From the NCBI RefSeq assembly GCF_003334385.1, contig NZ_QOWN01000004.1: a stretch of 64,000 bases of DNA. One strand, written 5' to 3'. Under the pieces are notes generated by a model. That model ran no database searches and had not been told where the DNA came from. It worked only from the letters and a program-made list of their open reading frames with translations. This stretch comes from Escherichia coli. GTDB lineage: Bacteria; Pseudomonadota; Gammaproteobacteria; Enterobacterales; Enterobacteriaceae. The translations under genes were made by a program, and so were the position numbers. Below are positions 51,925-53,770 of the stretch, piece after piece; within the stretch, counting starts at the first letter, position 1, and every line of letters starts with the position of its first letter.

Positions 51925-52326
51925 ATGACATGGAATCCGTTGGCGCTAGCGACGGCGCTGCAAACTGTACCTGAACAAAATATTGATGTAACAAATAGCG
52001 AGAACGCATTAATTATTAAAATGAATGATTATGGCGATTTGCAAATCAATATTCTTTTTACTTCCCGCCAAATGATTATCGAAACCTTTATTTGTCCGGT
52101 GAGTAGTATCAGCAATCCAGATGAATTTAATACCTTCTTATTAAGAAATCAGAAGATGATGCCGTTGTCATCGGTAGGGATCTCCAGCGTACAACAGGAA
52201 GAGTATTACATTGTTTTCGGGGCGTTATCGCTTAAATCTTCTCTTGAAGATATCCTGCTTGAGATAACCTCGCTGGTAGATAACGCATTGGATCTGGCTG
52301 AAATTACAGAAGAATATTCACACTAA
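51925..52326 (+). CDS. yjfI: uncharacterised protein YjfI (DUF2170)
   Basis: ORF-track 133 aa; first gene of yjfIJKLMC cluster. Confidence 0.85.
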   Translation: MTWNPLALATALQTVPEQNIDVTNSENALIIKMNDYGDLQINILFTSRQMIIETFICPVSSISNPDEFNTFLLRNQKMMPLSSVGISSVQQEEYYIVFGALSLKSSLEDILLEITSLVDNALDLAEITEEYSH

Positions 52327-52344
52327 TTACAAGGACGGGTATTT

Positions 52345-53043
52345 ATGGGAATTTTAAAAAGTTTATTTACGCTGGGGAAATCGTTTATCTCCCAGGCGGA
52401 AGAATCCATTGAAGAAACCCAGGGCGTGCGCATGCTGGAACAGCATATTCGTGACGCTAAAGCTGAACTCGATAAAGCCGGAAAATCTCGCGTTGATCTG
52501 CTGGCGCGGGTGAAATTAAGTCACGATAAGCTGAAAGATTTACGTGAGCGCAAAGCCAGTCTGGAAGCCCGTGCGCTGGAAGCGTTAAGCAAGAACGTTA
52601 ATCCGTCGTTGATTAACGAAGTTGCTGAAGAAATCGCGCGCCTTGAGAATCTCATTACCGCTGAAGAGCAAGTGTTGTCGAATCTGGAAGTCTCCCGTGA
52701 TGGCGTGGAAAAAGCAGTTACAGCGACAGCGCAGCGTATCGCTCAGTTTGAGCAGCAAATGGAAGTCGTTAAAGCCACTGAAGCCATGCAGCGTGCACAA
52801 CAGGCTGTAACAACCTCTACCGTTGGCGCATCTTCCAGCGTTTCGACAGCGGCAGAATCCTTAAAACGCCTGCAAACGCGTCAGGCCGAACGTCAGGCTC
52901 GCCTGGATGCTGCCGCACAGTTGGAGAAAGTCGCAGACGGTCGCGACCTTGACGAAAAGCTGGCGGAAGCCGGAATTGGCGGTAGCAATAAAAGTAGCGC
53001 CCAGGATGTATTAGCAAGACTGCAACGCCAACAGGGCGAGTAA
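52345..53043 (+). CDS. yjfJ: PspA/IM30-like coiled-coil protein YjfJ
   Basis: ORF-track 232 aa; N-terminus MGILKSLFTLGKSFISQAEESIEE parallels PspA [24 protein letters not shown]; predominantly heptad-like charged/aliphatic pattern. Confidence 0.85.
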   Translation: MGILKSLFTLGKSFISQAEESIEETQGVRMLEQHIRDAKAELDKAGKSRVDLLARVKLSHDKLKDLRERKASLEARALEALSKNVNPSLINEVAEEIARLENLITAEEQVLSNLEVSRDGVEKAVTATAQRIAQFEQQMEVVKATEAMQRAQQAVTTSTVGASSSVSTAAESLKRLQTRQAERQARLDAAAQLEKVADGRDLDEKLAEAGIGGSNKSSAQDVLARLQRQQGE

Positions 53044-53093
53044 TTTTTTTGCCAGCCTCGCTAAAAGGCTGGCAACTATTTTAAGGATAAAAT

Positions 53094-53753
53094 ATGTCTG
53101 GTTTTTTCCAGCGTCTGTTTGGCAAGGATAATAAGCCAGCTATCGCTCGTGGTCCGCTGGGACTTCATCTCAATAGTGGCTTTACGCTCGACACGTTAGC
53201 GTTTCGTTTGCTGGAAGATGAATTGCTGATTGCGCTGCCGGGTGAGGAATTTACGGTAGCCGCCGTCAGCCACATCGATCTGGGCGGCGGTAGTCAGATT
53301 TTCCGCTACTACACTTCAGGCGATGAGTTTCTGCAAATCAATACCACCGGCGGCGAAGATATTGATGACATTGATGATATCAAGCTCTTTGTCTATGAAG
53401 AGAGCTACGGTATCAGTAAAGAGAGTCACTGGCGCGAGGCGATCAACGCCAAAGCGATGGGAGCAATGACCTTAAACTGGCAGGAAAAACGCTGGCAGCG
53501 ATTTTTTAACAGCGAAGAACCGGGAAATATCGAACCCGTCTACATGCTGGAAAAAGTAGAAAATCAAAACCATGCCAAATGGGAGGTCCATAATTTTACC
53601 ATGGGCTACCAACGGCAAGTAACCGAAGATACTTACGAATATTTGCTGCTAAATGGTGAGGAATCTTTTAACGATCTCGGCGAGCCAGAGTGGTTATTTT
53701 CGCGCGCGTTGGGTGTCGATATCCCGCTGACATCACTTCATATTATTGGTTAA
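53094..53753 (+). CDS. yjfK: uncharacterised protein YjfK (DUF2491)
   Basis: ORF-track 219 aa. Confidence 0.85.
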   Translation: MSGFFQRLFGKDNKPAIARGPLGLHLNSGFTLDTLAFRLLEDELLIALPGEEFTVAAVSHIDLGGGSQIFRYYTSGDEFLQINTTGGEDIDDIDDIKLFVYEESYGISKESHWREAINAKAMGAMTLNWQEKRWQRFFNSEEPGNIEPVYMLEKVENQNHAKWEVHNFTMGYQRQVTEDTYEYLLLNGEESFNDLGEPEWLFSRALGVDIPLTSLHIIG

Positions 53754-53770
53754 TTACAAGGACGTTTACA

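Follow-up and report, generated by a model that had tools for sequence, protein, structure and literature searches.

A 14-nucleotide sequence shared by two stop/ribosome-binding junctions of the Escherichia coli yjf operon, one of which coincides with a CsrA crosslink site

Two gene junctions of one E. coli operon carry the same 14 nucleotides, TAATTACAAGGACG, each copy running from the stop codon of one gene into the ribosome-binding site of the next. Does this identity reflect a module shared for translation, the remnant of a gene pair duplicated long ago (the two origins put forward in the original prediction), or the resemblance of two ordinary junctions built from similar parts? We addressed this question in a 64,000-nt stretch of E. 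coli DNA, referred to here as the window.

Two junctions of the yjf operon

The region corresponds to the E. coli yjfI-yjfJ-yjfK-yjfL-yjfM-yjfC operon (yjfIJKLMC). Over 4.1 kb it shows 100% identity with E. coli strain 720632, whose RefSeq annotation, like that of MG1655, agrees with the gene calls. An exact-match search found the 14-mer exactly twice in the window, both times on the + strand and 1427 bp apart, confirming the twofold occurrence that had been reported. The earlier coordinates were right for copy 2, while copy 1, which had been placed at 52323..52336, lies one base further to the right. The genes and elements concerned are the following:

51925..52326, + strand: yjfI (DUF2170, described as CesT/Tir-like, PMC11237479), RefSeq-confirmed gene call
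52324..52337, + strand: copy 1 of the 14-mer TAATTACAAGGACG, yjfI-yjfJ junction, exact match
52331..52335, + strand: AAGGA Shine-Dalgarno sequence of yjfJ, its GGA ending 9 nt before the ATG at 52345
52345..53043, + strand: yjfJ (PspA/IM30 family), RefSeq-confirmed gene call
53094..53753, + strand: yjfK (DUF2491), gene call
53751..53764, + strand: copy 2 of the 14-mer TAATTACAAGGACG, yjfK-yjfL junction, exact match
53758..53762, + strand: AAGGA Shine-Dalgarno sequence of yjfL, its GGA ending 8 nt before the ATG at 53771
53771..54169, + strand: yjfL (DUF350 membrane protein), RefSeq-confirmed gene call

Concerning these genes, the CesT/Tir-like protein YjfI and the PspA-like protein YjfJ have been described as a dyad joined to polyamine-related genes and, in other species, to a potassium channel (PMC11237479), and yjfIJKL has been defined as the "YjfJ iModulon," which a promoter deletion activates in E. 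coli evolved under heat (PMC12492005).

Each copy contains the TAA stop of the upstream gene, as had been predicted: the TAA of copy 1 (52324-52326) ends yjfI and that of copy 2 (53751-53753) ends yjfK. The start codons of yjfJ (ATG 52345) and yjfL (ATG 53771) lie 7 and 6 nt past the end of the repeat, rather than the 8 to 11 nt given before. In both junctions AAGGA is the sole Shine-Dalgarno-like element ahead of the next start, and in both it forms the purine-rich stretch, complementary to the 16S rRNA 3′ end, that is usual about 5-10 nt before a start codon. The calculated duplex with the 16S 3′ end has an energy of -8.1 kcal/mol for yjfJ and -6.0 kcal/mol for yjfL, compared with a median of -6.35 kcal/mol over 50 E. 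coli junctions. From TAA to the next ATG the distance is 18 nt for yjfI/yjfJ and 17 nt for yjfK/yjfL, which places the upstream stops near enough to the downstream starts for coupling or re-initiation.

We also compared the predicted folding of the junctions with that of shuffled sequences. The folds are unexceptional (z of -0.2 and +1.4), the GGA is unpaired in the minimum-free-energy structures, and the stems that enclose it have little stability (-4.4 and -2.4 kcal/mol), shuffled sequences giving stems at least as good. Given this weak local structure, the folding predictions suggest that translational coupling would not be needed to expose the Shine-Dalgarno sequence. An RNA structure, whether stable or conserved, is supported at neither junction, since the folds do not surpass those of shuffles, and a known RNA family was rejected, no Rfam match being found at E<=1 over positions 51000-56500. 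We also discarded a dispersed repeat family: the 14-mer has two copies in the window, and its 11-mer core does not recur in 250 kb taken from elsewhere in MG1655.

The match between the copies breaks off sharply on both sides, where the flanking DNA aligns no better than shuffled sequence, and a search of the flank alignments for a longer or gapped repeat around the 14-mer found none. These results bear on the proposed duplication of an ancestral pair into yjfI-yjfJ and yjfK-yjfL, for which the 14-mer and the parallel register of stop and ribosome-binding site are the sole indications. The best BLASTP E-value for YjfI against YjfK is 5, YjfJ and YjfL give no alignment, and each of the four proteins falls into a family of its own. 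In addition, the identity between the junctions is not ancestral but grows toward E. coli, and in most genera a potassium-channel gene stands between the supposed pairs. With unrelated proteins and flanks devoid of similarity, the duplication is not supported, and we regard it as scarcely credible. Taken together, the protein, flank, 11-mer, Rfam and folding results lead us to reject all three alternatives: that the 14-mer is the scar of a duplication, a member of a dispersed repeat family or a structured RNA element.

The interval between yjfJ and yjfK shows a history of its own. Most Enterobacteriaceae have at this place a gene of the potassium-channel family, of ~355 aa, which starts at an overlapping TAATG. 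The common E. coli haplotype has instead a 50-nt spacer (53044-53093), E. fergusonii retains a 165-nt remnant of the channel gene, and a divergent haplotype of the operon (~94.6% identity), found in 19/5426 complete E. coli genomes, still has the gene. Exactly at the site of the missing gene, within the operon, lies a terminator-like hairpin (53049-53075, + strand), TTGCCAGCC-TCGCTAAAA-GGCTGGCAA followed by CTATTTT, which could act as a partial terminator or as a processing or stability element.

Chance and the history of the identity

The original prediction had asked whether such a 14-mer could be expected by chance, and the answer depends on what is counted. As a bare repeat, the match is unremarkable: the 64 kb contain 26 left-maximal exact direct pairs of at least 14 nt, against 7.6 expected under uniform composition. 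Among the non-tRNA pairs, two others also lie less than 1.5 kb apart on the + strand, namely the 15-mer CCTGAGTGATTTGTT (31071/32445) and the 14-mer CTGGCGAGGCCGCA (35991/36984), and such close-range pairs exceed the uniform-composition estimate for the window (~0.4). Tandem repeats with a 112-nt period (34151-34452, + strand; exact matches of 190 nt and 78 nt) resemble a tRNA gene cluster, presumably glyVXY going by map position.

The picture differs once the match is required to be in register at gene junctions. We assembled a null set of 51 same-strand junctions with gaps of 8-25 nt from the window and 250 kb of MG1655 (~314 kb covered, genes called with a heuristic caller), and compared their stop-anchored 14-mers. 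Among the 1275 pairs, the yjf pair is the sole one with 14/14 identity, the runners-up being one pair at 12/14, one at 11/14 and sixteen at 10/14. Position-specific frequencies give a probability of about 9e-7 per pair for a 14/14 match; a rough extrapolation to the ~750 such junctions of a genome yields ~0.3 identical pairs, and ~1e-3 to 1e-2 for junctions of the same operon. Chance thus readily accounts for the bare 14-mer, whereas an in-register 14/14 identity inside one operon is unusual by this naive null, which treats junctions as independent. Some shared constraint or copying may lie behind an identity so improbable under that assumption.

To follow the two junctions through evolution, we compared orthologous loci. 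A protein-pattern scan supplied 27 genomes, three look-ups of exact proteins added further loci, and several E. coli variants were included. The sequences are as follows, junction 1 being yjfI-yjfJ and junction 2 yjfK-yjfL:

Junction 1, E. coli major haplotype: TAATTACAAGGACGGG (GGACGGG)
Junction 1, E. coli minority haplotype (19/5426 genomes): TAATTACAAGGACAGG (GGACAGG)
Junction 1, E. fergusonii and the divergent Escherichia L004: TAATTACAAGGACCAG (GGACCAG)
Junction 1, E. whittamii: TAATTACAAGGAAAAG (GGAAAAG)
Junction 1, Salmonella: TAATACAGGCGG
Junction 1, C. youngae: TAACAAGGAACG
Junction 1, C. sedlakii: TAATCATCAGGGAG
Junction 1, Serratia and Phytobacter: TAAGGAG
Junction 2, E. coli, both haplotypes: TAATTACAAGGACG (in short ACAAGGACG)
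Junction 2, E. whittamii and L004: TAATTACAGGGACG (in short ACAGGGACG)
Junction 2, E. fergusonii: TAATTTCAGGGAAG (in short TTCAGGGAAG)
Junction 2, C. sedlakii: TAATTACAGGGAAG
Junction 2, C. youngae: TAATTTTAGGGAAG (in short TTTTAGGGAAG)
Junction 2, Kosakonia: TAATTATGGGAG
Junction 2, Salmonella: TAAGCACATACAGGGAA

This series limits the 14/14 identity, among the genomes sampled (a set that leaves out E. albertii, E. marmotae and E. ruysiae), to E. coli and to Escherichia sp. MOD1-EC7003, a very close relative. The two copies match at 13/14 positions in the minority E. coli haplotype and at 10-12/14 in other Escherichia species, and outside the genus just the TAA and the GGA core are kept. The repeat is therefore not conserved in orthologous clusters, which is the comparison that the original prediction had proposed as its own test. 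What remains of the predicted shared module is the trivial sense in which each junction places a stop and a Shine-Dalgarno sequence at working distance; as a conserved shared element it does not hold, since the orthologs lose the repeat.

Within E. coli, where conservation was read as identity bands of 66-nt windows over 5426 complete genomes, the junction windows are 100% identical in 4679/5426 genomes for copy 1 and in 4660/5426 for copy 2, that is, ~86%. Natural variants also occur. In E. coli O111:H- 11128, an 11-bp deletion (L035 2525-2536) takes away GGACGTTTACA together with the yjfL Shine-Dalgarno sequence, so that the junction now reads TAATTACAAatg; in E. coli FLI21, an IS1-associated deletion (L036 2528-3336) starts just past copy 1 and removes yjfJ, yjfK and the 5′ end of yjfL. 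These two variants indicate that the locus is not under tight constraint.

Two substitutions in the E. coli lineage completed the match: position 9 of junction 2 went from G to A, and position 14 of junction 1 from C or A to G. Each took on the base found in the other copy, as would be expected if one junction had served as template in a micro-conversion or templated mutation that homogenized a 12/14 direct repeat to 14/14. However, the junction 2 change occurred before the two E. coli haplotypes diverged and the junction 1 change did not, so that the minority haplotype has the former alone and the two substitutions must be separate events. Since they affect different copies at different times, two reciprocal conversions would be needed. 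Furthermore, the base at position 14 of junction 1 varies over four lineages (C, A, G or A), which marks the position as drifting, and three different bases across lineages are what drift predicts. A homology of 12-13 nt at a distance of 1.4 kb is also far under the length used by RecA-dependent conversion. We consider homogenization by copying very unlikely.

Drift of two ordinary junctions is the explanation we favor. Both junctions are built from common parts: the TAA stop, the AAGGA Shine-Dalgarno sequence and, between them, a short spacer rich in A/U (TTAC). Ribosomes that end yjfI or yjfK halt 18 or 17 nt short of the next ATG, where the 30S subunit may load directly or the terminating ribosome may re-initiate. 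The junctions were already alike in the genus Escherichia, at 10-12/14 positions, and one substitution in each, probably by chance, then completed the match in the E. coli lineage. The remaining junctions of the operon are assembled from the same parts: TAATGGACGATCatg from yjfL to yjfM, GGAGGcTAAtcATG from yjfM to yjfC, and AAGGAtaaaatATG before yjfK. At the yjfL-yjfM junction, which is kept as TAATGGA..ATC across many genera with a gap of 9 nt in most, GGACG comes straight after the stop, an arrangement (GGACG after TAA or TAAT) that repeats at several junctions on the + strand of the window, in TAATGGACGATCatg (54167-54181), TAAGGACGATTGatg (39192) and TAAGGACGCGCCatg (63488).

CsrA and the two ribosome-binding sites

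The core UACAAGGA of the 14-mer fits uACArGGA at 8/8 positions, that is, the 5′ two-thirds of the SELEX-derived CsrA consensus ruACArGGAugu (PMC5694010). Over the full 12-mer, copy 1 (UUACAAGGACGG) agrees with the consensus at 9/12 positions and copy 2 (UUACAAGGACGU) at 10/12, and ACA-R-GGA is absent from all the other junctions among the 51 sampled. The published CsrA CLIP-seq peaks that concern the operon map to the window as follows:

53731..53785 (MG1655 4411938-4411993), + strand: CsrA CLIP-seq peak_428 (Potts et al. 2017, PMC5694010 Supplementary Data 1)
51921..51961, + strand: weak CsrA CLIP-seq peak_427 at the yjfI start, log2FC 1.27, padj 0.092 (PMC5694010)

Peak_428 (sequence CAUCACUUCAUAUUAUUGGUUAAUUACAAGGACGUUUACAAUGCAUAUACUGGAU, log2FC 1.77, padj 3.66e-05, maximum at offset 29; PMC5694010) corresponds to the yjfK-yjfL junction and, with coordinates mapped via MG1655, its maximum coincides with the AAGGA core in copy 2. 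At the level of the data set, CsrA binding at the yjfL ribosome-binding site is real. Given the in vivo crosslink at copy 2, CsrA and the 30S subunit are probably in competition for the start of yjfL, and repression of yjfL, as deduced from the published binding, is plausible. At the other end of the region, the leader and start of yjfI carry ATGGAAT twice (51914-51920 and 51930-51936, + strand), 16 nt apart (tatATGGAATaatatATGacATGGAATcc); this pair resembles the CLIP-derived AuGGAug motif and overlaps peak_427, and its first copy is conserved in Escherichia.

Could the identity itself then be the work of CsrA, the two Shine-Dalgarno regions having converged on a high-affinity consensus as selected operators that co-repress YjfJ and YjfL? 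The 8/8 fit of the core, the 12-mer scores, the position of the peak_428 maximum and the weak peak_427 over the yjfI start speak in favor of this view. So does a second GGA found 15 nt (copy 1) or 22 nt (copy 2) downstream of the first, spacings that are within the bridging range of a CsrA dimer; in copy 2 this second GGA (53782-53784) lies just inside the end of peak_428. Moreover, the CLIP peak table contains ACAAGGA 33 times, which is several-fold above a rough expectation. Against the proposal, copy 1 has no peak in the CLIP table (PMC5694010), in which UUACAAGGACG appears only in two peak_428 rows. As copy 1 shares its transcript with copy 2 and precedes the terminator-like hairpin, scarcity of the RNA is unlikely to explain the missing peak. 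The bases 3′ of the GGA in copy 1 drift (CGG, CAG, CCA, AAA) and never come near UGU, the ACA-GGA arrangement is lost at both junctions beyond a few genera, and the predicted hairpins present the GGA no better than those of shuffles do. Our literature search found no main text linking CsrA to yjf genes and no yjf names in the Salmonella CsrA-related supplements of PMC6347204. On balance, selection of both copies as CsrA operators appears unlikely. We judge it rather doubtful that the two junctions form a matched operator pair that throttles YjfJ and YjfL within the polycistronic mRNA and that arose by recent convergence in Escherichia after the loss of the potassium-channel gene.

Another regulator that might read both sites is a single base-pairing sRNA, which through a CGUCCUUGUAA-like seed would pair with both 14-mers and block both ribosome-binding sites. 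Fourteen identical nucleotides over two Shine-Dalgarno sequences would suit one seed; however, the portion of the Hfq CLASH supplementary tables available to us contains no yjf gene, and the sequence is not conserved outside E. coli, which makes a shared sRNA target exceedingly unlikely.

We conclude that yjfI-yjfJ and yjfK-yjfL are probably two ordinary stop/ribosome-binding junctions, whose 14/14 identity is young and largely coincidental and of which copy 2 doubles as a CsrA site.

Significance and comparison with known systems

As a repeat, the 14-mer matters little, beyond illustrating that junctions made of the same parts (TAA, A/U spacer, AAGGA) can drift into an identity that mimics one. 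The useful lead is that a CsrA crosslink site, published but left without comment, sits precisely on the ribosome-binding site of yjfL, to which the yjfJ junction adds an identical candidate CsrA site. This lead provides an entry into the post-transcriptional control of the poorly understood yjfIJKLMC operon, with its PspA-like protein and peptide-spermidine ligase.

Like REP/BIME and ERIC elements, the yjf 14-mer is a short sequence that recurs in intergenic DNA. Unlike them, it has two copies, is non-palindromic, has no stable fold and no Rfam match, and overlaps coding stops. The likeness is closer to intercistronic stop-Shine-Dalgarno-start junctions, which the yjf copies resemble in stop spacing, AAGGA placement, average anti-Shine-Dalgarno energy and unstructured RNA; they differ from such ordinary junctions in being identical over 14 nt, as none of the other 1274 sampled pairs is. 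CsrA sites that overlap the Shine-Dalgarno sequence, of which glgC and cstA are examples, provide the third comparison. The yjf copies depart from the usual CsrA sites in lying at internal polycistronic junctions rather than in a 5′ leader and in having only weak predicted stems around the GGA, and copy 1 also in having no CLIP peak. They resemble such sites in that a GGA core lies within the Shine-Dalgarno sequence, that UACAAGGA agrees with the 5′ half of the consensus, and that a second GGA follows 15-22 nt downstream, and copy 2, like them, is crosslinked to CsrA in vivo.
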